NCBI GenBank assembly: GCA_013239625.1
Contig: MU053216.1
Location: 312,001-376,000 of the forward strand
Source of the DNA: Lama guanicoe
Lineage: Eukaryota
Length of the DNA: 64,000 nucleotides
Direction: 5' to 3'
Shown here: piece after piece, positions 1 through 45,260 of the stretch
Layout of the letters: every line of letters begins with the position of its first letter
How positions within the stretch are numbered: position 1 is the first letter of the stretch
Notes under the pieces: model-generated
The model's input: only the letters and a program-made list of their open reading frames with translations
Databases searched by the model: none
What the model was told of the DNA's origin: nothing
Translations under genes and position numbers: made by a program

Positions 1-149
1 CACGCGGCAGTCGTCCTGTAAGCCCCCCTTCTCGCGGTAACCCGGCTGGTCTGAGAACCAGTTACACGGGCAGGGAGGCGTTTTCTCCTGGCGCGCTCTC
101 TGGGAGCAGCCGTGTGAGGTGGGGGTCCTCTCCTCCCTAAGTCATCGGA

Positions 150-3010: not shown

Positions 3011-6000
3011 CAGCCCTGCCCCTCCACTTCCCGCCGATGACCTTGGGTGGAATACCCCGTGGGTCGCATACAATGCTGACACTATCAGCTGTAGCAGGTG
3101 TCAGCAGACGGTGGGAGGATTCTCGTGAAGACTGAATGAAAACCCACATGGCACCCATGAGCTCTCGGGTGGCGACACCGTGCTCCCGCGATGCTCACCC
3201 CGCCAACAGCTCGCACTGGTAACGCAGGAAAGAGAGTCCAACACCCCGTCTAACAGGAGTTGCCCTAAGTTACTTTCCTGCAGGTGGATAATTCACTTGG
3301 AGGAGGTCTTGACGCCTTTGAAAATACTCTCCATGCAGGTCCAAAGGGCTGAGTAAATAAAACATGGCAAAGAAGAGAGAAACGCCCACGGAGAGAACGA
3401 GGCTGCTCCCCCGAGCGCTGAGAGGGTAAAACGCTCACCTTGCGCCCACCAGCAGTGAACTGGGGCTCCCACCCCTAACATCCACACAGAAGGGCGGAGG
3501 GGGCCTCAACTCCAGGCAGGGGGACTAAGCTGGGCCTGTGTGTCGTGGCGCTTGGGGCGCCGGGGCCATCACCACAGACGAGCCGACCGCCATTCTGGGG
3601 ACAACGTCCTGCGTGTGAGGATACACATGCAGAGTGGTGTGTTTCAGTGATGCCAGAAGGAACTTTAACGCCAGCCTAGAAGCACACGTGGACAGCCACA
3701 GGGGAGGGCATGAGTGAGAGCCATAGGCCAAAGACCTTATGACTTCAAGAAGGCGCTGGATCTGATTTCAAGATTTGAGGCAGTAAAATTACTCCTACCT
3801 TACAGACGAGCTGAAAGGCCTAAGAGTCACGTGCACCCAGGTCATGGTGCAGCTGGGCCAGACCCAGAGGGGCTGTGACCTGGGCTCCTGCCACCCCTGC
3901 AGCCTCTTACCCTCTCCATGACACAGCCTAATCTCCCACCACCACCTTGTCCGGAGCAACACGTTTCTTGCCTCAAATCTAGTGATATCAGGAGCCGCGG
4001 GTAAAGACGTCTCATAGGAAACTTCTAGCATCCCCTGATGTTCTCCACGTCCTCCACAACCAACACTACTCGCTCCTGGAATCACGCCTCGGGGCTTATC
4101 GTCCACGTGACCAAAGCCATGCTGAGCGGGGGCCGGGCAGGCTCCGGGGCGGGGTCTCCTTGCCAGCTCTAACTGGAAGGGGCGCTCGGGCTGAGGCTCA
4201 GTGGGAAGGACGCGCACTTGGGTCTGGTGTCCACTGTGCCACTAACTGCTTTTGTGACAAGAGAATCATTTAACTTCTGGGACCATAATGTCTTCACTTC
4301 CACAATGAGGGCCGAGTCTGCAGTGTTCAAGCGCCCATCTAACTTTACACCACAGTAAATCCGTACTCATGCAGGCTCCGGACAAACGGCCTCTAGGTCT
4401 GTGCCCCCAGCCGCCTACTCACTGGTCCTGGTCAGACACTCAGTCCCCTGTGTTCACAGGTCACCTCTTCAACACGGCCAGCAGCACCCTGGTGGTGACG
4501 CGGAGCTGCCCACGCAGCCCAGTATACTCACACGTGGCCCGCGAGACTCAAGACACGGCTGGTGTGCTGGAGGAACTAACTCTTAAGTTCACTGAACCTT
4601 CATTTAAATCGAAGCAGCCACATGTGGCTACCAGCTCCCGCGCCAGGCAGCACAGCTGGGCCAGCCCCAGAGTCCAGGTCAGAGGCACCACTCCCAGGCC
4701 CTGCTCATGTGATGGGGACCGGACAGACCCAGATCGCCGGCCAGCTCCGTTTAAAAGCTATCAGTCTCACTGCCCTCACAGGTGAAGCCTCATCTTCCCT
4801 ATGCTTCTCGGAAGCACTGTCTTTGGAGCCGCACTTCTGACATGGTGCCTGTGCTGCAGTGGAAGGGCAGGGACCCACTTCCAGACTCACATCAGGCGCC
4901 TGCAGAGCTGCTCCCCGCCGCAGCCTCCGCAGGCCCACGTGCCTCCCCCGCCACCCTGCCTCCCCTCCGTTACCTCCCTGCGCTGGCCTGCAGGGCAAGA
5001 TGACGGTCAAAGGCCTCTGGAGATGAACAGCGAGGCAGGTAAGTGGTGGCTGGGAAGACGGCAGGCTGAAAACCCGGCCTCCTGGGAAACTGTCCCACAA
5101 GCAGAGGCAAAGCCTGTAATCTGCTAAGAAGCTGCTGCTGAGAAGGAGGGGAAGGCCAAATCTTGGGGCTACCAGTTCCCAAAATACGTGCCATTAGCTG
5201 CGTATTTCACACCCTGTACCAACCACCAATCCTCCTCCCCGCTTGCAGCAGGGAAGGAGGACACCCTACCAGCCCGCGGCTGTCCCCCTGCTGCCTCCAT
5301 CCCAGGGAGCTGTGAACAACGCCCTGCTGGAAGCCGGGCGTAGCCGACCAGCAACTGTCAACATAGGAGAAGAGACGGGAAAGGGAAACACACGGCAGAC
5401 AGACAGACACAGGGACAGACCTCAGACCTGACACAGAGGAGAAACAGCCCTGCTCAGTCTGGTGTGCTGAGTTCAGGTCAGGAAGACCTGGGCCGAGTAT
5501 GTGCACGCACTGGGGTGTGACCTGACTACCATCTACCTGTGTTCTAGTCTCACATGCCAGGCCACCCTCTCTAATTCAACACTGAGACCAGAGCCGAAGT
5601 TCAAGCAAGGAACCAAAGCTACAGCTCTGCTAACCAGGATGACGCAGAGGGCGGCGGGTCTCCCCACTAAGCCATGCATTTTCTGCCCCTCTGGACCAGC
5701 AATTCTCCACAGGCACAAAGAATCGTTTGGCCCAAGATTTTAACAGTGCCAGGTCCACAGTAAAGGGCCACATGGTGGATCCTCGACTTTGCAGGGCTGT
5801 CCCATGAGCCTGCCGGAGCACCGGAGGGGCTGGGGCGAGGCGGCCGGGCCGGAAACCGTGCGGCCCACAGAGCCCAGAAGACACACTGTCTGGGCCCTGC
5901 GGCTCCCTGCTCCAGACTCCAAGCCACACGGCACCGAACCACGGCTCGGAGAACTCCCTGTCGACGCTGTGCAGACACGGCGAGCCCGGGTTCTCCGCCG

Positions 6001-7250: not shown

Positions 7251-7907
7251 CACTGGCTGTTGGCAGTAGTAATAATATTCTAAAAGGAAAGACTGTGCAC
7301 GGTTTGATCTCAAGGCAACTATGACACAGAGACACTGCAGGGACGCTGCTGGCGGTGAGCGTGCGCATCACCCTTATTTCCTGCCTGAGATTTACGTGCC
7401 ATAGAAAATGTGATAAACGCCATGGACTCAGACCCCTTGGCTGCCGCCCGCCTGGAACGGGGCTCCAGCGGCTGTAACCGGCCTCCCTCGGGGAGAAGGG
7501 CCCTGCGAGCAGGAGGAGCCCCTAACCCTGGTTTTTAACCTTATTCAACACTAGCCTGTTTTCAACAACCAGACCCAAAATGTCATTTCCTCCCAGGAAA
7601 AAGAAAACTATTTATACATAAGGAAATTTTGCCAGCACTTTTGGGGATTTCTGGACGTTTCTGAAGCTCAGGTTCAGAAGAGAAGAACCTGCAGGACCCA
7701 GCCAGTTACCTTCAGGGGAAAGTAAGTGTGAACAGTGTCTCCTTGAGCCACCCCCATGCTGCAGAGTCCAACTCCTTGAAGGCTCAGCGGCACTTTTAAA
7801 AGTTAGGCTTCCTGAGGAGTAATTCACATACAGCAAAATGTGCCCTGAACTATATACAAGTCTAAGAGTTCTGGTAAGTGTGTCACAATCAAGAAACAGA
7901 ACAGCTC

Positions 7908-8022
7908 GGGGGGAGGGTGTCGCTCAAGCGGTAGAGCACGTGCCTAGCATGCACACTGTCCTGGGTTCAATTCCCGGTACCTCCTCTAAAATAAACACAT
8001 AAGTAAATTTAATCACCCCCCA
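7908..8022 (+). mobile_element. tRNA-Ala-derived camelid SINE (Vic-1-like) with 17-bp TSD
   Basis: gggagggtgtcgctcaagcggtagagcacgtgcctagcatgcac...gggttcaattccc (A/B boxes) with an A-rich tail; TSD aagaaacagaacagctc 7891-7907 and aagaaatagagcagctc 8023-8039. Confidence 0.85.
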
Positions 8023-8905
8023 AAGAAATAGAGCAGCTCCATCACCGCCCTCTTGCAGTTAACCTCCCCCGGCCCCTGCCTAAGGGGAGCTGTTTTAATT
8101 AAAGAGAAAGCTTCAAAACCACTGAAGGAACACATTGACTTTTTCACTCCCACTGAAACGCAACACATAAGGCAATGATGACCAGGAGACTGGGTGTGAG
8201 CCACTGCACGCAGCCAAGCACACGCAACGCCTGGCCTCCACTCGCTGCCAGCCTCTCCCGGTCGGGAAGGCGGGCGCCCCAGGGTCCGCACGTCCTTAAC
8301 ACCTGGCACTGTGCCCGCCCTCCACGAGGTGCTCCAAAGCCATCACTGAACTGAACTGAGCCGATGCGTGAAATTCAGGGTCTGAGTTGTTACCGTTTTG
8401 CCTTTCATTTCTGAAGTCCGGCCAACAGTGTGTTGGTTCCGTCCTTCACTTTCCTCATTCCATCCGATCCTCCAACCAACTCCTCTGATACATTTTCTGA
8501 CCCGTCACAGACACTTTATCAAGTGACAGCCTGGTCTCCCGCAGGAGCTTGTGGGGAAGTTGTACATACAAAGTACGCTCATTGCAATTTATGGCTTAAA
8601 AAAAGCCATAAAGAGACAGTGCCTGAGGGGGTCACAAGGAAGGTGACTTGCATGGAATCGACAGGGAGGAGGGAGAGGCCTCCTAGAAGACAAGAGGGAC
8701 GCCATCGCTGGGGGTGGCGCTTTGGGCTGTGAAGCAGGAGAGTGAGCTGCGCAGACCGCACACTCTGGCCAGTTAGGAGGGACAGGGACGGGGAGGGGGG
8801 CGGTTCTGGCGGAAGCCTGCGGGGAGTGACGAGGGCAGGTCACTTCTTGGTGAGAAGGAAGTTGTCTGGCTCGATCCCCAAGCTGCTCAGTGCGGTGACA
8901 CTTAC

Positions 8906-9061
8906 GCAGGACCACTGACAAAGACAAAACAGCTAAAACAACGCTCCTTCTTGCCTTTTTAGGGTCAGAGGGGAGGAAGTGGTTTTGTTTATTTGTTTAT
9001 ATCCTCTTTCTAACTAGGACTCGAGAACTCTTAAGACACACACACCCCTGGCCATATTTGA
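8906..9061 (-). promoter_or_regulatory. Candidate internal promoter and short first exon in intron 13 (possible M20/HS-M21 small-subunit transcript)
   Basis: Minus strand: TATAAA 9001-8996, CCACTTC Inr/ETS-like 8982-8976, strong donor TGC|GTAAGT at 8906/8905. Also a perfect CArG CCTTTTTAGG 8954-8963, a CArG-like CCATATTTGA 9052-9061 and two TGTTTAT forkhead-type sites. Confidence 0.5.
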
Positions 9062-9476
9062 AACAGATGAAGAAACAAGGGGGAAGGAAATGATGGCCAG
9101 TTACAGCCACAGCTTTGCAGGGTCCACGCGAAATTACACAGCTCTGCAGAGGAATCTGGGCTGGAAATGGAGACGTGGGAGCCAGTGGAGCAGATGAGAC
9201 CAGTTCGGGAAGGTCCTAGGGGGAGGGAAGGAGGCAGCCTAGGAGGCCCAAGGTGCCTGCAGGAGAGAAGGGGCTGAACGGGCACCAAGGAGGGTGTGGG
9301 GGCTGTGGAGGGGAACAGAGCACCGGGGCGACCGTGTGTGGAGGGCATGGCTCAGGAAGGCGGCAGCCACACGACCAAAGGCTGCCAGGAGCAATGCTTT
9401 CAAGGCTGCGGCGACACAGGAGCCGGGTCACTGGGGCTGCGGCAGGGTGCCCAAGCGTGTGTGCAGGACAGGTGAG

Positions 9477-11275
9477 GGGACAGGGGAGGGGACAGGCAGG
9501 GGGACAGGGGAGGGGACGGGCAGGGAGACGGGGAGGGGATAGGCTGAAGGACAGGCAGGGGACAGGGGAGGGGACGGGCAGGGAGACGGGGAGGGGATAG
9601 GCTGAAGGACAGGCAGGGGACAGGGGAGGGGACGGGCAGGGAGACGGGGAGGGGATAGGCTGAAGGACAGGCAGGGGACAGGGGAGGGGACGGGCAGGGA
9701 GACGGGGAGGGGATAGGCTGAAGGACAGGCAGGGGACAGGGGAGGGGACGGGCAGGGAGACGGGGAGGGGATAGGCTGAAGGACAGGCAGGGGACAGGGG
9801 AGGGGACGGGCAGGGAGACGGGGAGGGGATAGGCTGAAGGACAGGCAGGGGACAGGGGAGGGGACGGGCAGGGAGACGGGGAGGGGATAGGCTGAAGGAC
9901 AGGCAGGGGACAGGGGAGGGGACGGGCAGGGAGACGGGGAGGGGATAGGCTGAAGGACAGGCAGGGGACAGGGGAGGGGACGGGCAGGGAGACGGGGAGG
10001 GGATAGGCTGAAGGACAGGCAGGGGACAGGGGAGGGGACGGGCAGGGAGACGGGGAGGGGATAGGCTGAAGGACAGGCAGGGGACAGGGGAGGGGACGGG
10101 CAGGGAGACGGGGAGGGGATAGGCTGAAGGACAGGCAGGGGACAGGGGAGGGGACGGGCAGGGAGACGGGGAGGGGATAGGCTGAAGGACAGGCAGGGGA
10201 CAGGGGAGGGGACGGGCAGGGAGACGGGGAGGGGATAGGCTGAAGGACAGGCAGGGGACAGGGGAGGGGACGGGCAGGGAGACGGGGAGGGGATAGGCTG
10301 AAGGACAGGCAGGGGACAGGGGAGGGGACGGGCAGGGAGACGGGGAGGGGATAGGCTGAAGGACAGGCAGGGGACAGGGGAGGGGACGGGCAGGGAGACG
10401 GGGAGGGGATAGGCTGAAGGACAGGCAGGGGACAGGGGAGGGGACGGGCAGGGAGACGGGGAGGGGATAGGCTGAAGGACAGGCAGGGGACAGGGGAGGG
10501 GACGGGCAGGGAGACGGGGAGGGGATAGGCTGAAGGACAGGCAGGGGACAGGGGAGGGGACGGGCAGGGAGACGGGGAGGGGATAGGCTGAAGGACAGGC
10601 AGGGGACAGGGGAGGGGACGGGCAGGGAGACGGGGAGGGGATAGGCTGAAGGACAGGCAGGGGACAGGGGAGGGGACGGGCAGGGAGACGGGGAGGGGAT
10701 AGGCTGAAGGACAGGCAGGGGACAGGGGAGGGGACGGGCAGGGAGACGGGGAGGGGATAGGCTGAAGGACAGGCAGGGGACAGGGGAGGGGACGGGCAGG
10801 GAGACGGGGAGGGGATAGGCTGAAGGACAGGCAGGGGACAGGGGAGGGGACGGGCAGGGAGACGGGGAGGGGATAGGCTGAAGGACAGGCAGGGGACAGG
10901 GGAGGGGACGGGCAGGGAGACGGGGAGGGGATAGGCTGAAGGACAGGCAGGGGACAGGGGAGGGGACGGGCAGGGAGACGGGGAGGGGATAGGCTGAAGG
11001 ACAGGCAGGGGACAGGGGAGGGGACGGGCAGGGAGACGGGGAGGGGATAGGCTGAAGGACAGGCAGGGGACAGGGGAGGGGACGGGCAGGGAGACGGGGA
11101 GGGGATAGGCTGAAGGACAGGCAGGGGACAGGGGAGGGGACGGGCAGGGAGACGGGGAGGGGATAGGCTGAAGGACAGGCAGGGGACAGGGGAGGGGACG
11201 GGCAGGGAGACGGGGAGGGGATAGGCTGAAGGACAGGCAGGGGACAGGGGAGGGGACAGGCAGGGGAAAAGGGGG
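9477..11275 (+). repeat. 58-bp G-rich minisatellite, ~30 essentially identical copies
   Basis: Unit ggacaggcaggggacaggggaggggacgggcagggagacggggaggggataggctgaa; the marker ataggctgaa recurs every 58 nt from 9539 to 11221 (30 times). Confidence 0.97.
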
Positions 11276-13427
11276 AGGGACAGGGATGGGTAGGTGAGGA
11301 TTCCTATTAAGTAAGAGTGAAGAGGAGGCTCCGAAGGAGTCAGTGAAATTAGTGGACTCTAAGAGTCAGGGGGGCGCATGAGTGAGACCATGGCCCCAGA
11401 GGGCAGGACAGGGCTCGGGCGCAGCTATAGAGGACAGGCCATCGGGGCGCTTGGTCGCAGGGAAGCTGGGCTTCTAGTTCCTCTCCTGTTGTTCACGAGT
11501 ACATGCCCGGAGCTCCTGTGAGGCCCTGGGCACTTGCTCACGAAGGAGCTGAGTACCTGAAGGGTCCCTGCAGTGCTATGTGCTCTGTCACAGGTCACAC
11601 AAGTGCACAGGGTGTGAACCGCACCCTGTTTCCCTCTGTTCAAGGCTGGAAGACCACAACTTCTTCAGCAGACACAGTTAAGGAGCTGTGTCAGCATGCC
11701 ACCCAGGGTTAACCACGAGACCGAGGGCGGGAGGACTATTTGAGGACCAACCAGAAACTGAATCATTCAGGGCCCTGCTGTCAGGCAATGCTGATTTTTT
11801 AATACTTCTAAAAACAGAAACACGCCTGCCCCTAGCTGGGACACTCCCCAGGGTAAACTCCTCACGCACAACACAAAACCCTGGAAGAGTCGGGCGACAC
11901 GCAAGACCGCCTCTTGCTGGCTTTTCAAAAGCCCTTATTTCCCACCCAGATTTCAGAGGATGAAAGCTTTCGACTCGCTTTGTTTTCAGCAGTGGTTTTC
12001 CCCCAAGACAAATACTCATTTCCTAGCTCTGTCTTCTCTTCAAAAAAACAAAACAAAACAAAAACAAGAACAAAACAGACCGAGGGAGCCCACCCACTAT
12101 GCCCACGTCTCCAGCGGATGGAAACGCCAGCCCAGCGGAGACTGACCCCTTGCTCAGTGGTCAGAGCACGTGGCCTGGTTCTAAAGCCTGGCTTTGCCTC
12201 TTCCTGGCTGTGACTGTGGGGCACGTTCCAAAATCTACGTGAGTCTTAGTTTTCTTATACGTATTAAGAAAATACTGTTACTCACCTCACAAAGTTAAGA
12301 GGACTAAACGCATCTGGGTACGGGCATATAATAAGCTTTCCAAATACTAATTCTCGGGCCCAACAACCCTTTCATAAATCTGAAGCCAACCTGAGCTCTC
12401 CCTCTGGGGTCACGCCGCTGCCAAAACCGCCCTGCCCACAGCGGGCACTCAGGCTGCCCCGGGCCTCTGGGGGTCCTCGTGCTTTCCTGTGTCTGGTGTC
12501 CATGAGCTCGAGGGCACCTCCTCACTCTGCACTGACCCTTGTGCCTGTGGCTCTCACGTGGAGGACTGCCGCCTGACAGACACGCCTGCACCCTCCCCTA
12601 CGTGACTGCAACCCAAGGGGCTCACTGGAAGTGCATCAGCTGACGCCTCTGCTGCCACCTTCTGGACATGGGGCGTCACTACACAGGGGCTGATTTTCAC
12701 GAGAAACTTGTTTTCCCTAAACACTGATGCCATGCCGGCTCCACAGCAGGTTCTGTGGTGGGAAAGAAGCCAGGCAGAAAGACCTTCAGGAAGCTCCCAG
12801 TGCAGCGGTGTCAGTGACACCAGCCCAAGGACGGAAGAACACTGCAGAGAGAACCCTGGTCTTGGCCAGGGACCAGCCTCGGGCTTGGTCTTGGGAGCTC
12901 TTCTCATGTGAACGGGATTCTGTGCAGAGAAGGGACAGAAGGCCACCCAGAAAGAAAGTTCAGCACAAGCCCCCAGCAGGTCGGGGAAACACCTGGGCTT
13001 TCCACCTGGGTAGGCAGAGCGGCAGCGTGGTCACCAAAGACACAGAACAGAGGAGGAGGAGCGGGGAGGTGGGGCCAGGAGGCGGGGGAGGGCAGCACAG
13101 CCCTGGGCAGGCGGGACCACCACGGGAGGGGGGACAGGGGTTCCCCCAGCCCGACCTGGCGGGCTGTGAATTTCGTCTACAGGCATCCACGATCAATCGG
13201 GAAACGTCTTGTGTGGACGGGAACACATCAGCTCCCGGATTCAACCTGACTGCACACCGCCTGTAGTCAGCAGGCGCCCATCCTGTTCAAAGGCCATGCA
13301 AGGAGCAGTCTACACCCTCACACCTAAACCAGCCTCCCTCCCGTAACTGCCCAAAGTATCTGACAATTTTCTGTTTTACTTACTTACAGTCTATACTTTG
13401 TAACAGTTAAGATGACAAAGATACAAA

Positions 13428-13523
13428 GGGTAGACCTCAGTGGCAGGGCACGTGCTTAGCATGCAGGAGGCTCTGGGTTCCGTCGCCAGTGCTTCCGTTA
13501 AAAACAAAACAAAGAAACAAAAC
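13428..13523 (+). mobile_element. tRNA-derived SINE (Vic-1-like), degenerate
   Basis: ctcagtggcagggcacgtgcttagcatgcaggaggctctgggttcc followed by an aaaac-rich tail. Confidence 0.75.
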
Positions 13524-14799
13524 GGAAGCAGTACACAACCACCACCCGTGCACTTCCAGCCAACTTACGGATAACGTCTCTGGTAACAGCTTCCTCTTAA
13601 AAGAGGTGCGCGTGCCTGCTTGTTGAAATTCTTGACCGTCCTCCACCGCCCGAACGTCTGGGGTGGGCACCACGGGTCAGTTCATTACGAACATGAAGGA
13701 ACACCAGAGAAGTTCCAACTGGTTACTCCGAACGCAGTATCTTATCCTTTCCACCCCCACCCACACCACCAGAACGTGCAACCAGACAGCTTCCTAAAGA
13801 ACCCCCAGGAGAGAGGTGGCCAGAGGGCAGAGACAAGCACCTGCACGTCAGCACCGCCAAGCAGACACTCAAGCTGCTGTTCCCGGCCTCCAGGCCCGGC
13901 GCCCCAGGTGCCCTGCACGGACGCCAGTTGGCCCTCAGACACTGAGGGTGCTAGTCCTGGGGACAGGAAGGCCAACTGCCTGTGCCTCCAATTTCCACAC
14001 GGCCAGGAACAGCAGGGACTCCGCCGCCAGATCAAAGCGTTGCAGGTGAGCACGCCCGTCCGCAGCTTTCCCCAAAGCCCAGTTTTCAACAAACAGGGCC
14101 ACTTAGCGGGCGCCCTCCCACGTTAACCCTACAGCTCGTTCTGTGAGACTGTGCAACTGACCAGCCTTTTCCAACATGGGAAAATCAGCTGTTAAGGGGG
14201 GTGGTGAGGGCACGAAATGTTGGTCCCTCCCACGTGTCACCAGTACTCACGGCTCTAAAAAAGAACCTCTTTATCAGAAGGAGATTAGCTGTAAAAGCCT
14301 GGCTGACACGGGCTGTGGGCGCAGGTGTGAGGTGACGGTCCTTTCACTCTCCAGTGGCAGGGCCGGGCCAGGACGGCATCTATCCTCCCTGGACACCTGT
14401 TAGAGCCGCAGCTCCAACCTGCGAGGTGGCGTGCTGGGGAACTGGTGACAAACATGCTGTCTCCCGAGATGAAGGGGGTGCGTGTTTGACAACAGAAACG
14501 CAGGGAAAGAGAGCCGACTTCTGCGTCCCCGGCCCCTGGTCCCCGCAGTACCTCTCGGCAGGCATCAGGCAGGCACCCGGCCCGCTCAGTGGCCGCATTG
14601 TACCGGTGTCGGTCTCGAGCTTCACGAGGCAGAACTGGCACCCGCTGAGGTGAACCGTTCAGTGGCTTTCGGCGCACTCGGAGCTGGGCAACCAGCGCCA
14701 CAGCCCGTCCTGAAACGTTCCGCTCATCCCAAGGAAAAAGGCCAAGTGCGTGACAGTCACTTCCCACTTAGTGTTTGCTCTTAAATTTTTTTAAGTAAA

Positions 14800-15750: not shown

Positions 15751-18700
15751 TGATGCCAAATTAATCTGCGGTCAGCTTCACGTTAGAATCACGACCAAGC
15801 TTACAAAGACCCCCAGGGCCTCTAGCAGGTCGAGGTGTGAGGTATCCATGCTCAGAGCTGACGCTCCCTGACCAAGCAGAGCAGGTCGCACATGCGCGCC
15901 TGGGCCAGACAAATAATTTCAGCTTTTGTAGAGAAAATCTATTCCAACCATTTCTATGAGAAAAGAAAGGGCGCCAATAAGAAGGAAGATGTAAATCTCA
16001 GGGCTGGAGCAGGGGGAGGGAGGACAGGGTGAGAGTCAGAGGTGGAACCGCTCGGACCAGAGAGCAGCCGCCAAGGACTGTTTACAACGTGCTGCCAGGG
16101 AAAACCTGGAGCTCCAGACCAGAAGCCGTGAAGTTCTGTGACAGCTGCTGGCTGCCCTGACGCCGCGGTGGGGGCACCTGCCAGCCAGCCAGCCAGCCAG
16201 CCAGCCTGGATAATCGCATGGCCCGCAGTCTCCACAGCGCCCGGGAAGATCCACAAAGGGGTGGCAGTGACTCAGCTGCCATGAAGGGAGAGGCGACTGC
16301 GTTCCAGGCTACAGACCCAGATGGCGCAGCCCCTGAACCAGAACCTTCTCTGAAATCCAAAAGACAAAAAGGTCAGGGAGTTCAATGAGGAGGAAACAGG
16401 CCTGGGTTTTGGTCTCCACTGTGCCTGACTTGAGGTGTGAGGTTAGGCAAACCACTGCATGTGCTAAGGGCCTCAGTGTTTCCATCTGTAAAATGGGGCC
16501 TAACTCCTACCCTTTCCCTCCTGTGAAAGGAACACATCTGGGTGCAGGGGAGAAAGAGAAATGAAAGGAAAGAAAGGAACTCTGTAAATCCAGGACTGTG
16601 CCCTTCTCAGAAGTCCTGCCCTGAGCTCACCTGCAAACCTTCAACCTCTTGACTTCGGTGCTTACACTTCAGTGACTGTGGCCATCTTCAGAGATCTGAA
16701 TCCTAAGAGAGTCTTGTCCCTAGAGTCAATTTTTTTTTCAAGCTCTCCTGCTGTCCCCCACCGTCATTACAGTAATACTTCCTCACTTTGGAACTTTGGA
16801 AACTACAGGAAAAAAGTTAAAATAAAATAAAAATTACCCATAACCCTTCAGAAAAATCTAGTGGTAACCGTTCCAAGTTGATCATGATTTGGTGCCACAA
16901 CACAATCCTTCTGTCTTCTGCTGAGGATATGACTGCCTGCAGGGCATAAAGCAGAGCCCAGTCACCACGCTTCCCCTCTCCCAACAAAACGGCCTCAGAC
17001 AGGAAAGCCAGTTGCGCAAACTGAGGCTGAGGCCCATGCCAAGCGCACAGGCCCAGTCCCACTGCGAGCGGACATCCCCTCTGAGATGCCTTTTCCATCG
17101 CTCAGGTCCTGCTGTGGCCAGTGTAGAGGCCCACTCAACCCGAGGCTGACTGTCCTGGGACACGGGCTTCAGGCCTCCATTCCGGCTGCCAGCAGAAGCC
17201 ACAGTGCCTCCGCGGGGAGCAGACCCAGACCCAGAGGACCCTGCGGGGAGAGGAACCAGCACCACACATGTTCTTCCAGAAGGAAAATGTACTTGTTTTC
17301 AAAACACGTGATCCTTTCTTTCAGCGTGTGTTTGTCTGAAGGAGAAACGAAACAGCTTTAATTCTGTAAAGGCTTAACTGATCTGTTTCATCTGACCAGG
17401 TCATTCCCCAGCTGAACGGTCCACAGCTCTGAGAACAGAAATGCAAGATTCTCAGCACAGCACAGACAAAACCTGCAGATGTGGCCCCTGCCCGCCTCTC
17501 CAGCTCCACATCTCCAAGGTTCACCCAGTGGGACAGCAGTCAGGTTTCCGAGAAAACCACCACAACAAACGCTGTGAGGTGGACACAGAACTGTGGAAAA
17601 CGCTGCGAATTCTAACCGCCCCTCTTCAGGAGAGGAGCGAGGCTGCCGTTTGGAGTAGCCCTGTGTCCCTGGGTTCAGCCCATTTTCACAGCTCCACGTG
17701 GCCACGGGTGCCTGCCTCCTTGCTCTGCGTCTACCCCACACAGGGCACTGCGGAGTCGCTGCCCGGCCTGACCTGCCCCGGCTCGGCACCACCTCCTGTT
17801 CCACCCATGGCAAGCCCAGCCCCAGGGCCCTGCCGGTCACCCTCCCCACCACCCTGCCCCACCCATGCAGGCGCCCCTCCCCTGCCCCCATAGCCGCCTA
17901 CACGGACCCGGCACTGCAGTGGTTCCCACGACAGACCTTGCACCCTGAACACCTCTGTGCCTCTACGTGCTTGCCAGACGCCTCATGCACGTGGGTCCCC
18001 ACTTCAGTGGAGCTCTACGCACATACAACACCACATGTGCAGAACCTTCTCTCTCAGGAATGACCCTTGATGTATTTAACCTAACTTCCTACAGACGTGT
18101 CCATCTTCAGCACAACTAGTCACTTTTAATTACTGTCACCCGTTTAAATCAGTCTGAGGCTTCTGTCCTGCGTTCAGAAGTTGTCGCATGCTCGTCTGCG
18201 TCTGTTCCCTCCTCCTCTCGGTGAGTCATCTTCTCAGCGTTTATGATGTTCTGTGTGAGTTTGGTTTTGGTGAGGAACTGTTTTACAGGAATGCCTCTAT
18301 GTAGGGTGTCGATGAGTTTCTTCAAGATGGTTTTGAATTTGCTTTTGCCATGCTGGCTCCAGGGCTTCAAGAGTATAGACCCAGTTTCTCTGTTAAGTTC
18401 TTGGTCTGGGATTTCCAAACTGTCTGGGCGGCAAACATCTCCCATAAAGATCCTCTGTGACTGTGCAGGCCCCTGACACTCCTCCGGGCCGCGGGCAGTG
18501 CTTTGAGAATTCCAGCTTCACGCAGGTTCCCGGGTGCAGACCCCAGTCCGGTCAGGCCCTAAGTCAAGCTTCTTGCCCCCACGTGGCATCAGGATCTGCG
18601 CCTCGGACTCCACAGCCCGCAGCACAGGTTTGGTGCCACTCGGGCTGCACAAACCAGTCTGGCCCTTGCGGTCTCTTCCGCCTTGTCACTGAGGAGCTCC

Positions 18701-19460: not shown

Positions 19461-21499
19461 GGAGAGCCGGTCGAACCCTCTCCGGGGGCTCGTCACAGCT
19501 CCGAGCACACAAACCCCAACTCCCCGCCACGGCTGTAAGGCCGCGTGACAGAGCCTCCTCGGGCTCCTGCCCTGCACCTCTGCCCGCCAGCCACAGCGTC
19601 TTCCTGGGTCTCTCCAAAGGGTCCCCGCCTGGAGCGCTCAGCCCTCCTCTCCCGCAGCGGCTGTCTGACCTACAGCCCTCTCAGAACACTCCCCCTGGCC
19701 CCCAGGAGAAGGGAAGTCTCCAGTCGGCAGGCCTTCTGGAATGAGCTGTCACAACAGCTCACAGTGTGTCTCCGAGCACAGCGTCTGTGTGCCGCTGTCC
19801 CTCCCGGGCACAGGGACCGTGTGCTGCTCAGGCTGCACCCTCTGGGCCTGTCCCCGCCCCGGCGACGGTGCACGTCAAGGGACCGCGTGGGATGGCGCTC
19901 TGTCCCACGCGTCCCAGTTACTTGGCCTGTGCATCGTCCTATTTACTTTATCATCTAACAGTTACTGTTTATTATCCGACAAATAGCCAAGCTCTGTCCA
20001 TCCTGTGCCATGCCCAGAATGTGCTCTTCTCAACACACCACGTCCATACTGTAATTCGTCAGTTCCTCGACTCAGCTCTTTCACTCTCATATTTCCTCAG
20101 TGTGACACCTGGCACATAGCTGCTGCTCAGTACGTACTCGTGGGCTGAGTAAGACTCCCACCACAAGGTCACAGTCCGGAGCAGGTGCTGTCTGACTGGC
20201 CACAGGCTACAAAATTTCCAGAAGACGGGAACCAGATCTCTAGGTTTCTCTTAACAAAGATTCACACAACTGAATCTGATCAAGAACCTGGCCTACCCAT
20301 CCTTCCGGGGACCAAGATCTTAAATTTAACTCACTTCACTCGTCCAGGCTCAGGGTTCTTTTAAGGGGGTTTTCCCAGCCAGTGAAAGACTACTTTTGCA
20401 TTTAGTTTCTAGATAAAACTAACAGTATCTACATTACATCTGAACTATCAAATACATAAACATTAGACATTTAAAGCTGATTCACTAAAATTTCCCTGGC
20501 TAGAAGCCTATTAAAAGATGACAGCTGTTGGCTCTGCAATCTATTAGCCCATAAAATGGAATTTTTTCAATTTTTATGTAAAGAAATTTTTTCAAAAAGG
20601 AAGGAAAAGAAAGGACTAAGAAAAACACTGCTTTTTTAACTTCCATTTCTTCTCAAACTTATGTCTTAGAGCTGTCTTTATAACAAACACACATCTGAAC
20701 AGTTTAACTCGTTGTATTTGGAGATGACAAGATCCTTTGATGTGTTACACACACACACTAACAAATACATTGTCTCTTTCCTTTGGATATTCAAAATAAA
20801 ATGAAGTCAAATCGACATCTAAATTTTGGTAAAATTTCACCTCTTCTTCTAGTCTTAAACGGGGATGATTATGGCCTCAGTCTGCGAGTTGATCTGATAC
20901 TCCCAAATGGAATGCATTCTATTTTCAAGTCGTCTTCAGGTGGAGGAACCCGCCCATTCTCCTTGGTCACATCTTCCAAGGTCTCGTAATCCTGACTCCG
21001 CTTCTGCCCCGAGTCCCTCCAGGGCCAACGCACGATGCTGTCTCACAGTCCCTCCCTAACGAGCCTGCACACAACCAGCCTTCCACACGTCAGCCGCACC
21101 GCTGGCCTCCCACACTCGTCTCAAGTCAGCTGGAGCTTCCACCCGGCTCTGCTCTCGGAGCCCCCCCCACTGCTCTCCTTTGCTGCCAGAAGCCACCCTA
21201 GACCACCCAGAACAAAACCAAAGATCCTTCTCTGTGCTCAGGCTCTGCTTCACAAGACGGGGAAATAAGGCCTGCCAGGGGTCTCTCTTCCAAGACAACA
21301 GAGGGAGAAATGCCTGTATCCACAACAGAGTAAGTGGCTGCGCTACATAACCAGAAACAATTAAGATGGCCACCGAAACGCCCCCAGAGGCAAAACACAA
21401 ACCCTAAGCTGTGAAGCATCTGAGGCTGGGGGACACTTCACACCCCTCCTTCACCCCCACGTCAAAGCAGAACCCACCAATGAAACAGCCCTAGCACAC

Positions 21500-21682
21500 C
21501 TCCGCCTCTCCCTGGCTTCCGCAGAGGAGTCCGTCCCCGGAGCTGGGAGCAGAGTAGCAGCTGTAACCCCACTGGCAGAGCTGGGTGGGGGGCGGTTAGT
21601 GATCACACAGAGCGGGGTGCTGAGGGGGACGCCGTCTGCGGTCTTCTCTGCTGCCGGGTCAGCCCGGGGTCTGTACGGAGCC
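21500..21682 (-). CDS. PPP1R12B: MYPT2 coding exon 13, 183 nt
   Basis: tttcag|G GCT CCG...CGG AG|gtgtg; APYRPRADPAAEKTADGVPLSTPLCVITNRPPPSSASGVTAATLLPAPGTDSSAEARERR(R). Confidence 0.95.
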
Positions 21683-23049
21683 CTGAAATCAGAAAAGGCA
21701 GAGCAGAGAGAATGGTCACGGGCGCCACACAGCAAAGCGCCAGCACAGAGACGGGGGCCTCCAGACCGGCTAGGCCAGAGCAGCTTCTGGCTCAGATTTT
21801 ATCTGTAGTTGATTTGTTTTCTTAATTCTGAGCTCTTAAATCTTGGAACAGCGATTACACTTCCAGCCTGACATCTTCTGCCTGAGGAGTTATGTTTTAT
21901 GAAATTTTTTTAACTTGAGATCTTAAAAAAAAAAAATTTTTTTTAATTAGCTGAGACACAAGGCAAGATAGTGACACATGCAAGAGCGCGTAAGTGACTC
22001 CTGAGACCAGCTGGCCTCACACACACACACGAGCCAGGCCCTCACACGCGAAGACGACACCGAGGTCACTTACGATCCCAGGCAGCCAGAGTCCCCACGG
22101 CGGCCCTCAGCCTAGACCGGACGACCGTCCTCTGGGCTTACCAGAGGTGCTGGACAAGTGCCCTGCAACCTCAGCGCGTCAGCCCTCCCCCACCCAGCCT
22201 GGCCACCGCTCGCCTTCCACGGAACTGAAGCCTGACTGTCTACATTCATGGCTGCAGACAGGAGAGATGGAAATGAAAACTAACAGGGTTCTAATGCAGC
22301 CTTAACCACAGACTCTCCAGCGCAAGCTGCACAACTCAACTCATTCACGTGGAAACAAGACCTCTGTTTCTTAACAAAGAGTCAAGAGCAACCATTGGCT
22401 CTCCACCCAAAAAGCTGCCGTTTGTGATGTCACAGCTTGTTGCCAGGTAACAGAGACCCAAAACTGATACTCAGAGACGGGAGACGCAATGACAGTAATG
22501 AATGCTAAAAATCTGTTTCTTCCACCTACTTAAAACTATCAGAAGTGCTTATAAGTAGCTATAAACTCACTTTCAAATAATCATATTGTCATAATAAGCT
22601 TGCAATAATTAATTAGATCATAAAAATCTACATACAGAACCTGGATGCAAGTATAAAGATAGCAGTTTTGAAGCGGCATCTAAACAACACAGGCCACTTC
22701 TCCAGAAGCATTAAAACTCAGAAAAAGGCGAGATTTTGCATTCATTGTTTAATTTAAATTTCTGAGTTATTAATTTAAAATGCAATTCTTAAGACCTGTA
22801 AGACATATGAACCTATAGAAAGCACTAATAAAATCAGCCACAAACAAAGGAGCAGAACAGGAGAAGCCCTAGAGCAGGGCTCACAGGCTCCGGAAGCACC
22901 TGGGCTAACCCCTCTGCCGCCCTCACCTGTGAAGTGGGGGTGACGAAGCGTAAAACAGAGATCCTGCCGTGATGAAAGAAAACAGCGTCTGTGGACACCG
23001 AGTATCGTGCCGGAATAAAATGCAAACTCAGTGGAAGCAAGCAGTGAAG

Positions 23050-35994: not shown

Positions 35995-36186
35995 CTCCCG
36001 CGCTCGGGGGACGGAGGGCCTGCGTCACCTGCCTTCTGACGAGCAGCAACCTCCCGCGCTCGGGGGACGGAGGGCCTGCGTCACCTGCCTTCTGACGAGC
36101 AGTGACCTCCCGCGCTCGGGGGATGGAGGGCCTGCGTCACCTGCCTTCTGACGAGCAGTGACCTCCCGTGCTCGGGGGACGGAGGG
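35995..36186. repeat. 56-bp tandem repeat (~3.4 copies) immediately downstream of the exon 8 donor
   Basis: ctcccgcgctcgggggacggagggcctgcgtcacctgccttctgacgagcag... units start at 35995, 36051, 36107 and 36163. Confidence 0.93.
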
Positions 36187-42029: not shown

Positions 42030-45000
42030 TCATTTCATTTCTTAATTTTCACAGCATCACTGAGACATGACCAGAGTATGACACCGTGTAAGTTACAGGT
42101 GCACAGCGTGTTGACCTGGCACACTTGACACCACCCGATGATTATCTTTGTGGAGACACTCAACACCTCCTCACAGAATCACCACTGCTTTTTTGTGGTG
42201 AGGACACTTAAGATCTCCTAGCAGCTCTCGAGTATATAGCACAGTATTGTTAACCACAGTCACTGTGCTGCACCTCAGACCCCTAGGACTTCTGTGTCTT
42301 ATGACTGGAGGTCTGTTCCCTTGGCCAGCGTCTCCCCGGCTCCCCAGCCCTGCAAGCCAACATTCTGCTCTCTGCTTCTCTGAGTCCAGCTTTCCAGCTC
42401 CCACACACCAGCAGCACCACACATGTCGGTCTTCCTCTGTCTGGCTTACTGCACTAAGGACGGCGCCCTTGAGGCCCGTCCACGCAGTTGTGTGCGGCAG
42501 GGCTCCCTTCGCTCTCACGGCTGAGTCATGCCCCATCACATACAGTGTGCGTGTGTGTGTACACACCCCCTCACCTCTTTATCCACTTACGCATACACTG
42601 ACACTCAGGTTGTTTCCATATCTCGACATTGTGAGTGGTGCTGCATTGAACGTGGGGGGCAAATATATTTTGGAGTTAGTGTTTCCATCTCCTTTGGATA
42701 AATATGCAGAAGTGGAGCAGCGGAATCACGTGACAGTTCTATTTTTAATTATTTTACAACCCTCCATGCTGTTCTCCACAGCGGCTGCATCAATTTTCAT
42801 TCCCACCAGCAGTGCACGAGGGTCCCTGTTCTCTGCATCCTCGCCAGCACTTGTCACCTCTCATCTTTCTGAAGACAGCCATTCTGACAGGGGTCAGGGA
42901 GTGCCTCGCTGTGGCTCTGATGTGCATTTTCCTGGTGACCAGTGAAGCTGAGTGTCTCTTCATGTGCCTGCTGGCCATTTCTTCTCCCCAGGGAGTCTTC
43001 TCGGCTCTCTTGCTCAAATGTTAATTGACCATATTTGTGAGGGCTTGTTCTGGGCTCTTCTTTCTGCCCCACAGGTCCACACATCCATTTTTATGCCAGT
43101 ACCGCCCTGTTTTGATTACTATAATTTATAGTCAGGAAGTGTGATGCCTCCAGCGTTGTCTTCTTTGGCTGTTAAGGGTCTTTTGTGATTCCATACAAAT
43201 TTTAGGATTGTGTTTTCTTTCTGTGAAAAATGCCACTGGAATTTTGATAGAAACTGTATTGAATCTACAGATGATTTGGGGTAGTGAATGTGTTAACTAC
43301 ATCAATGCACCTAACCCATTAATCCAGGCTACCCTGCCATCTATTTGCACCTTCCTCAGTGTCTTTCATCGAAGTCTTGGAGTGCGCGGACCTTCTACCT
43401 CCTTGGTTAAGCGTGTCCCGAAGTGTTTACTGTGTTTGACGCTACTGTGAATGGGAATGTCTTATTTACTTTCTTTTCCAGACAGTCTGTCACTGTTGTG
43501 TAGAAACACAACCGATCTCTGTGTATTGACTTTGCATCCTACAACTTCACCACATTTGTTGATGAGTTCTGCAGTACTTCGTGGAGCCTTTAGGATTTGC
43601 TACACATGAGATCACATCATCTGCGAACAAAGATAATGCTGCTTCTTCCTTCCTGACCTGCATGCCTTTTATTTCTTCTCCTTGCCTGGCTGGGACTTGC
43701 AGCACCGCGCTGAGTAAGAGAGGGAGGAGCAGGCACCCTTGTCTTGCTCCTGATCTTCGAGGAAAAGCTTCCACCCTCTCACCACCAAGTGAAATCAGCT
43801 GTGGTTTGTCGTGTGGCCTCTATGACACTGAGGAAAACTCCTCCTACGTGCAGTTTGCTGAGAATTTTTATCATGAAGAGATGTTGTATTTTGTCAAATC
43901 CCCTTTCTGCATCTCCTGAGATGCCTGTGTGGTTTTTACCTGTCACTCTATTAACTGGTGTATCACGTGCACTGATTTGCAGGTGTTGAGCCCACCAGCA
44001 TCCCAGGGGTAAATCCCACCTGCCCACAGCGTGTGCCCTTCCGCTGTGCTGCTGAACTCAGCTGGCCGGTACTGGGTCGAGAGCTCATGCGTCTGCATCC
44101 ACCGGGCACAGTGGCCTGTCTGGCTGTGGGAGCAGGCCATGCTGGCCTTGTGAAATGAGTTTGAAGCGCTCCCTTCCCTTCGATCTTCTGAAAAGTGTTT
44201 GAGAAGGACTGGTATTAATTCTTCAAGTGTTTGACAGAATTCACCAGGGAAACCACCTGGGCCTGGTTTTCCTGTTGTCTGACTGCTGACTCAACCTCCT
44301 TACCTGCTATTGGTCGATCTCCTGTTTCCTCCTGACTCAGCCTTGGCAGGCTGCGTACTTCTCAGGACTCCCCAGTTCCTTCTCGGTTATCCAGGTCGTC
44401 TGCCCACAGCTGTTCAGGAGGCTCTCGTGATCCCGTGTTCTGTACGACTGCAGTTCCGACATCTTCTGCGTTTCTGAGTCTATCCGGTCATCCCTTTTTC
44501 TCGTAGCCTAGCTGAAGTTCGTCAGTTTTGCTTATACTCTCAAAGAAGAGAGATGCTCTCAGTTCCACTGATCTTTTCCATTGTTTTTTTCTGGTCCCAT
44601 TTCAGTTCTGCTCTGATCTTTGTTATTCGGTCCTTCTACTAACTCTGGGCCTATGCTCTTCTTCTTTTTCTAGTTTCTTGACGTGCAAAGTTACGTTACT
44701 TGAGAGCGTTCTTTTTCCTAGTATGGGCATTTATCGCTACAAACTTCCCTCGTAGAACCGCTTTTGCTGACTCTCATAAGTTTTGGTATGCTGTGTTCTA
44801 TTTTTGTTTGTTTCAAGACTTTTTACGTTTTTCTTTTGATTTCTTCCGACCCCTAGGTTGCTCAGCAGCATGTTGCTTAACCTCCACGTATTTGTGGATT
44901 TTCCCATTTTCCTCTTGCTCTTGATTTCCACTTCCACTGGGTGTGACTCCAACCTTCTCAAGTTTGCCAAGACTTGCTCTGTGGCCCACCAGAAGACCTA

Positions 45001-45260
45001 TCCTGGAGAGAGTGGCGCGTGCAGTTGAGAAGGAGGTGTGTTCCGCTGCTGCTGGATGGAGCGCTCCGCACTTCCGTTAGGTCCACTTGGTCTACAGTGC
45101 AGTCCATGTCCAGAGTTCCTCTGCTGATTCTCTGTCAGAGCGAGCTGTCCACTGTGGAGAGCGGGTACTGAGGTCCCTGCCAGCACTGGGCCTGGCAGTA
45201 TGTGCTGTGCACCCGGGCACACCAACGTGGGGGCGTGTGCTGTTAATCCTCCCGATGAAC
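42030..45260 (-). mobile_element. L1 (L1MA9-like), ~3.2 kb, 3' UTR plus broken ORF2
   Basis: RT-domain remnant EAFPRRSGARQGCLLLPLLL...LSLFADDVI (43547-43774); ISGDAERGFDKIQHLFMIKIL (43779-44027); NTWRLSNMLL (44737-44970); L1MA-type 3' UTR at about 42030-42600. Confidence 0.9.

Follow-up and report, generated by a model that had tools for sequence, protein, structure and literature searches.

We have found that a cluster of short motifs at 8906-9061, on the minus strand of the window (the whole 64-kb stretch of Lama guanicoe DNA analysed here), is probably the camelid promoter of HS-M21, the heart small subunit of myosin phosphatase, together with its non-coding first exon. It should not be the promoter of M20, and transcription should start downstream of the initiator proposed before. 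The earlier note on this DNA had read the cluster as an internal promoter for M20/HS-M21; the location, the non-coding exon and a known human heart promoter speak for this reading, while the M20 part and the initiator have to be given up. That the promoter is transcribed, in which tissue, and that it is orthologous to the human one is what we infer from the sequence.

The host gene is PPP1R12B, which encodes MYPT2. The translation of a 57-residue exon matched PPP1R12B/MYPT2 proteins, the camelid ones best, and also MYPT1 in PDB entry 1S70, and exons 2-8 and 10-13 could be placed by tblastn (Table 1). The next exon, exon 14, which begins with SYLTPV, has no match within the 64-kb window. We call the host intron "intron 13" because the count includes exon 1, which is outside the window, and one unmapped exon, seen as a gap at residues 399-435. 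The cluster is located 12.5 kb into this intron, on the strand of the gene and upstream of the SYLTPV exon, and 1.8 kb of this distance is a 58-bp tandem repeat. The repeat is G-rich on the plus strand; it might be variable in length and influence the promoter.

Table 1 Features of the PPP1R12B locus placed in the 64-kb window (positions are those of the window).
Feature	Position	Strand	Details
PPP1R12B exons 2-8 and 10-13		-	tblastn with alpaca model P0017, 91-100% identity
PPP1R12B exon 13	21499-21684	-	last mapped exon (tblastn); upstream boundary of host intron
Remnant of carnivore/orangutan exon (MGLQL...ELER)	17497-17620 (upstream limit approximate)	-	34-42 bits; no homologous GT donor
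tRNA-derived SINE copy	14958-14788	-	
Remnant of minke whale model (P0137) exon	14062-14160	-	44 bits, 0/60 shuffles; no homologous GT donor
tRNA-derived SINE copy	13410-13603	+	
58-bp tandem repeat	9490-11265		30.6 copies, 99% match; about 430 bp upstream of cluster
CArG-like box TCAAATATGG	9052-9061	-	one mismatch; chance-level by itself (34 such sites in window)
TATAAA (9001-8996) overlapping three tandem forkhead-type sites	8986-9001	-	RYAAAYA at 9000, 8996 and 8992
CCACTTC	8976-8982	-	earlier proposed as Inr/ETS-like motif
CCACTTCC	8975-8982	-	ETS-type core, 11 nt upstream of perfect CArG
Perfect CArG box CCTAAAAAGG	8954-8963	-	SRF consensus; sole one in window
Candidate non-coding first exon	8906-8966	-	predicted; starts at 8966/8960/8930 give 61/55/25 nt
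Splice donor TGC/GTAAGT	8900-8908	-	cut 8906/8905; intronic half perfect, exonic half weak
tRNA-derived SINE copy	7897-8089	+	
Remnant of MQACxxR exon	4974-4993	-	ATG to CTG; donor GAG/GTAACG kept; 20.5 bits, 0/200 shuffles

Several other features of the host gene have been observed. A 56-bp tandem repeat of 3.4 copies is located at the end of exon 8 (35995-36186 of the window); it is the source of an additional segment, GDAETL...SSEGR, in camelid models, and a 399-aa wild camel model ends there. This Camelus ferus model (P0353) had been considered as a short isoform, and is the N-terminal half of the protein instead. The dromedary model P0015 uses an extra in-frame segment at 27586-27488 (-), between exons 11 and 12. 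Many non-camelid short proteins (P0122, P0143, P0311, P0441-P0448) start with MKLASLVQR directly before an exon SASFGRSS..., which lies between exons 12 and 13, is absent from the camelid proteins compared, and may mark another internal start. In addition, charged open frames at about 42800-45100 (-) may be decayed LINE-1 pieces.

All the five motifs on which the earlier note had built its reading are present on the minus strand, at the positions and in the order that it gave; the three forkhead sites overlapping the TATA box had not been mentioned there. RYAAAYA and the ETS core are consensus motifs of the forkhead and ETS factors, and the combination of CArG, FOX and ETS sites recalls smooth-muscle promoters. 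Taken singly, the motifs carry little weight because each is common in the window: one-mismatch CArG boxes occur 34 times, TATAAA 11 times and GTAAGT 14 times. The perfect CArG box is found once in 64 kb, with about 2.9 expected from shuffles, and its A/T core could double as a TATA-like element. If a cluster is defined by TATAWA, a perfect CArG no more than 150 nt away from it and GTRAGT 40-250 nt downstream, one is present in the window, and such a cluster arises in 4 of 200 block-wise dinucleotide shuffles (one strand); this rule was drawn up once the site was known. The tandem FOX sites and the ETS core lay outside this rule. There are no GATA, MEF2, M-CAT or NKE motifs within 400 nt of the cluster, which is unusual for a heart promoter. 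The cluster is CpG-poor (observed/expected 0.27-0.52), and this fits the non-CpG-island class of promoters. As for the donor at 8906/8905, previously called consensus, its intronic GTAAGT deserves the name, while the exonic TGC matches 0/3 of the MAG positions.

Searches beyond the window have added little. Rfam gave one match on 8300-9450 (E 4.7), which we rejected. An exact 27-mer scan of metagenome contigs for the cluster returned 0 matches; a gapped-pattern scan of such contigs returned 16 loci, none of which aligned past the pattern (best E 0.003), and we read them as chance. Neither scan gave orthologous mammalian DNA. A sequencing-run search with 8300-9450 gave 24 runs, and its six RNA or possibly-RNA rows, at 0.06-0.08 of 129 words, are not counted as evidence.

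The geometry of the core promoter decides where transcription could start. According to PMC1779604, functional TATA boxes are located at -32 to -29, or up to -34 if there is no nearer pyrimidine-purine step, and TATA-like motifs that lie nearer than -28 generally do not function. With the initiator that had been proposed at 8980, T9001 would stand at -21, which is too close by the -28 limit (PMC1779604). A start "nearer 8970", offered as the alternative, has no pyrimidine-purine step to use: 8979-8967 are all pyrimidine, and therefore the first usable step is 8966, at -35. No pyrimidine-purine step puts the TATA box at 9001 at -34 to -28, where the canonical TATA-Inr geometry would have it. 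Further steps exist at 8960 (-31 from the T at 8991) and at 8930 (-31 from a T inside the CArG). With a start at 8966, the CArG would awkwardly occupy +4 to +13. CCACTTCC, for its part, is better read as an ETS core than as an initiator. The view that the first exon is non-coding holds well, since the candidate exon is AUG-free and ends in a GT donor; on the minus strand no ATG is present all the way from 9001 to 8906, just as had been claimed.

The short PPP1R12B proteins that we compared fall into three classes: M20, HS-M21, and proteins with private N-termini joined to SYLTPV. M20 has 186 aa, starts with MSSLYTR and joins at HERLSRL, with models in wild camel and alpaca. Its MSSLYTR segment has no match in the window (profile score 23.9 of 110 bits, plus-strand control 24.7), so the cluster should not be the source of M20, and this half of the earlier proposal fails. 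Proteins of the HS-M21 class have 200-226 aa, start with MD(K/R)NE about 155 residues into the sequence from exon 14 onward, and carry no private N-terminus; among them are annotated proteins of 208 and 224 aa starting with MD[K/R]NE, from human (NP_115286, NP_115287) as well as many amniotes. In baboon (Papio), models of 186, 208, 224 and 388 aa (the last MQAC) exist side by side, which requires a separate HS-M21 first exon without in-frame AUG. The element at 8906 is an exon without AUG, the property that an HS-M21 mRNA requires. No camelid model starting in intron 13 was found among the best 120 of 224 matches, all 22 members of three camelid clusters, and 15 of 51. Met depletion in exons 14-16 was considered as proof of a leader role and dropped, as a control region gains Met equally rarely.

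HS-M21 reportedly starts in intron 13, as Arimura is said to have described in 2001. From coordinates that we take to be right, the human promoter lies roughly 13.6 kb beyond exon 13; this is a rough fit, which suits the 8906 site and the 4974 exon alike and separates neither. Our literature search found no paper on MYPT2 intron 13 or on a CArG alternative promoter of PPP1R12B. As described in PMC13755552, M20 is a MYPT2 gene product that arises by use of an alternative promoter, and heart-specific variants exist. Table S1 of PMC2923625 gives a human downstream first exon, uc001gyb.1, which is non-CGI, 114,035 bp from the main promoter, and has a signal of 1059 in heart against 16 in muscle and 7.5 in prostate; in human, PPP1R12B thus has an internal promoter that is heart-specific. 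The short mRNA of smooth muscle arises from an internal start (PMC4552530). A transcript of the 208-aa isoform c, detected in intestine, is called M20 (PMC4630939, PMC3732286), so M20 and HS-M21 are not named strictly in the literature. HS-M21 raises Ca2+ sensitivity, and its overexpression causes hypertrophy (PMC13755552, PMC9418503); PMC10944028, PMC10851227, PMC9418503, PMC4819859 and PMC8745055 give general background on the subject.

Intron 13 also contains other alternative exons. A first pass, an ungapped BLOSUM scan with 20 alternative N-termini, gave nothing clear; a frameshift-tolerant back-translated profile then placed in the window three of the private N-termini that are joined to SYLTPV elsewhere (Table 1). 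For the carnivore/orangutan remnant at 17497, no shuffle scored as high for the two carnivore profiles (0/60). Other N-termini (e.g. P0132, P0133, P0136, P0144, P0179, P0190 and P0235) showed no clear peak in the window. At 8906 itself, the alternative N-termini reach at most 16.4 bits, and the MQAC coding sequence scores 6.7 bits at the 8906 donor versus 20.5 at 4972; the MQACxxR remnant is a separate element, 3.9 kb downstream of the cluster. Around this remnant, the CTG follows GCC; further features are an in-frame ATG upstream (5194), a CArG with one mismatch (5188) and an AG resembling an acceptor (5016). Among the four intron-13 candidates, only at the 8906 site do a TATA box, an ETS core and a perfect CArG occur within 400 nt. 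In primates, the 17497 and 4974 exons have in-frame ATGs, and since its ATG is kept in frame there, the 4974 exon is unlikely to be the HS-M21 first exon.

MQACxxR starts are found in 20 of the proteins compared, from fish to apes. The mammals are bonobo, baboon, vervet, squirrel monkey, fox, otter, Geoffroy's cat and chinchilla, and the other vertebrates are two turtles, sturgeon, paddlefish, gar and eel.

Transcript-derived proteins provide evidence on the codon at the junction. Two Logan proteins of a primate cluster, P0443 (9 contigs) and P0447 (3 contigs), start with M/SYLTPV, while the junction residue is R in 223 matches of the other proteins compared; from MDKNE on, 60 residues of P0447 are identical to human NP_115286. 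We checked the starts set by the gene caller in 57 Logan proteins, of which 34 were resolved, and in 27 of these 34 the initial M takes the place of M, V or L. The remaining seven are three pig and one bird-like protein (matched via other species), one bat protein (matched to the camelid Arg), P0443 and P0447. The junction codon should therefore be ATG, GTG or TTG, with an upstream exon ending in AT, GT or TT. The 8906 exon ends in GC at a CpG, one transition away from GT, and would be compatible with a junction that is itself deduced from a called start codon. The 4974 exon ends in AG, and the final R of the models implies AG for the 14062 and 17497 exons as well, so these ends misfit the M/SYLTPV transcripts. 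We estimate that this argument favours the 8906 site about 2-fold over a random site, with contig-edge artefacts being possible.

Several other explanations of the cluster have to be weighed. It is unlikely, although worth serious consideration, that the SRF/forkhead/ETS site serves as a muscle enhancer within the intron (or else as a minor or smooth-muscle start), and that HS-M21 comes from another intron-13 exon, either the one at 14160-14062 or one beyond the window. A CArG at or just past the likely start is awkward for an activator, the TATA spacing is off, three other intron-13 exons from mammal gene models map in the window, and GTAAGT is frequent there, all of which would suit this reading; however, primates have in-frame ATGs in two of these three exons (17497 and 4974), a GT donor is missing here from the 14062 and 17497 remnants, and the AG ends implied by R-ending models disagree with the M/SYLTPV transcripts. 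We regard it as quite improbable that the A-rich/C-rich core is the 5'-truncated or decayed tail of a camelid tRNA-derived SINE, with the motifs as by-products. The tail of the copy near 14870-14815 does align to 9001-8948 with a score of 42.5, equalled by 0/1986 tiles and 0/1000 shuffled targets, but this tail test was post hoc and made on low-complexity sequence, and the tail of a second copy is weaker, with 56/1986 tiles scoring as high. In addition, the tRNA-like head is unmatched (scores as high are reached by 1842 and 1827 of 1986 tiles), a three-copy profile has no match at the cluster at E<100, and no clean target-site duplication is visible by eye. The cluster had been called non-repeat sequence, a label which is insecure because 9001-8948 resembles the 3' tail of one SINE copy.

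The cluster is very improbable as the start of the smooth-muscle M20 mRNA, in which a non-coding exon would be spliced over exons 14-18 to the MSSLYTR exon. Its CArG, forkhead and ETS sites do resemble visceral smooth-muscle internal promoters such as that of telokin, and the internal start of the smooth-muscle short mRNA cited above would agree with such a role. Against this stand the coding N-terminus that M20 has of its own and that is absent from the window, the upstream sequence in pig-cluster transcript proteins (RVPQPSLRLRPGA), which by eye is unlike the 8906 exon, and the human downstream first exon, which is high in heart and low in prostate (PMC2923625 Table S1). A functionless chance cluster of short motifs is scarcely credible: although each motif is common and the post hoc rule is satisfied by 4/200 shuffles, the site shows the right intron, orientation and order for the expected promoter, and the rule had made no use of the tandem FOX sites and ETS core.

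We thus return to the reading of the cluster as the HS-M21 promoter. In such a promoter, SRF at the CArG, with adjoining ETS and forkhead factors, would recruit Pol II, and transcription would start between about 8966 and 8930. From 8906, the candidate exon would be joined to exon 14, which is beyond the window, and exons 14-16 would act as a leader. The product would be the C-terminal coiled-coil part of MYPT2, lacking the PP1-binding ankyrin half.

In camelids, the start of this product has presumably changed. All the camelid MYPT2 proteins compared that span the site (alpaca, dromedary, Bactrian and wild camel) have Arg at the HS-M21 initiator, at residue 783 of P0017, at residue 815 of P0015 and likewise in P0328, in exons beyond the window. 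That is, the camelids do not share the MD(K/R)NE initiation of a 200-226-aa HS-M21. Among 109 distinct segments from mammals, birds and reptiles, which are related to one another, the initiator Met is kept in 100. The camelids account for three of the Met-less segments, all with Arg, and have Met at -23 and -10, plus one at -88 in alpaca or -43 in dromedary; the others are bilby (Met at -15), Sturnira (-109), three with Met at +2 (two of them Apodemus) and one gapped model. Overall, a replacement Met is present nearby in 8 of the 9 non-keepers, while an upstream Met is present in 5 of the 100 keepers. The new upstream Mets of camelids (2-3) are mostly at Thr columns, as an ACG-to-ATG change would give.

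As the usual initiator is Arg, camelid translation would begin 10 or 23 residues further upstream (88 in alpaca). These data suggest, at the level of sequence, a compensated turnover of the start codon, with the HS-M21 product still under selection in camelids, and the product is therefore presumably still made; a compensated turnover is also suggested in bilby and Sturnira. Weighing on the other side are the control region, where Met is gained rarely too, and the lack of intron-13 starts among the camelid models listed above. Tentatively, and with some reserve, we propose that camelids may have rewired the output of PPP1R12B intron 13: the promoter is kept, the HS-M21 Met has become Arg and the MQAC ATG has become CTG, with the start-codon turnover compensated by upstream AUGs that would make the heart subunit 10-88 residues longer (231-309 aa in alpaca); separately, MQACxxR would be a MYPT2 product of its own. 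If this is true, the MQACxxR form has the inhibitory RRSTQG site without the PP1-binding ankyrin half, and is able to act in trans; we met no description of it in the literature consulted.

If the cluster is indeed the HS-M21 promoter, the heart small-subunit promoter of myosin phosphatase would be placed at base resolution, with its CArG/forkhead/ETS layout. The gain is modest since the internal promoter is already known in human; what is newer is the turnover of the start codon in camelids and the deep conservation of the MQAC isoform.

Comparison with the known systems puts the candidate in its place. Smooth-muscle M20 (186 aa; human NP_001184060 according to PMC13755552) is also a small myosin-phosphatase subunit from an internal promoter; unlike in the candidate here, its N-terminus is coded by a segment of its own, which joins at HERLSRL, far 3' of exon 14 and outside the window. 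The MQACxxR short MYPT2 models (339-391 aa) likewise begin in intron 13 and are joined to exon 14, but their exon is coding, maps to 4993-4974 with its ATG lost here, and is distinct from the 8906 element. The telokin promoter in MYLK is intronic too and makes a C-terminal fragment, with an AT-rich forkhead tract beside a CArG and with ETS input; the likeness is one of layout, as telokin belongs to a different gene and is smooth-muscle specific. The closest counterpart is the human uc001gyb.1 promoter of HS-M21 (NP_115286, 208 aa; NP_115287, 224 aa), to which orthology is putative. It differs in that human HS-M21 initiates at MDKNE, whereas the camelid protein, without that initiator, would be N-terminally extended, and in that the camelid cluster has no GATA or MEF2 motif nearby. 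The human promoter is, like the candidate here, internal to the same gene and non-CGI, and human HS-M21 is the C-terminal part of MYPT2, for which a non-coding first exon is expected, as we propose for the exon at 8906.
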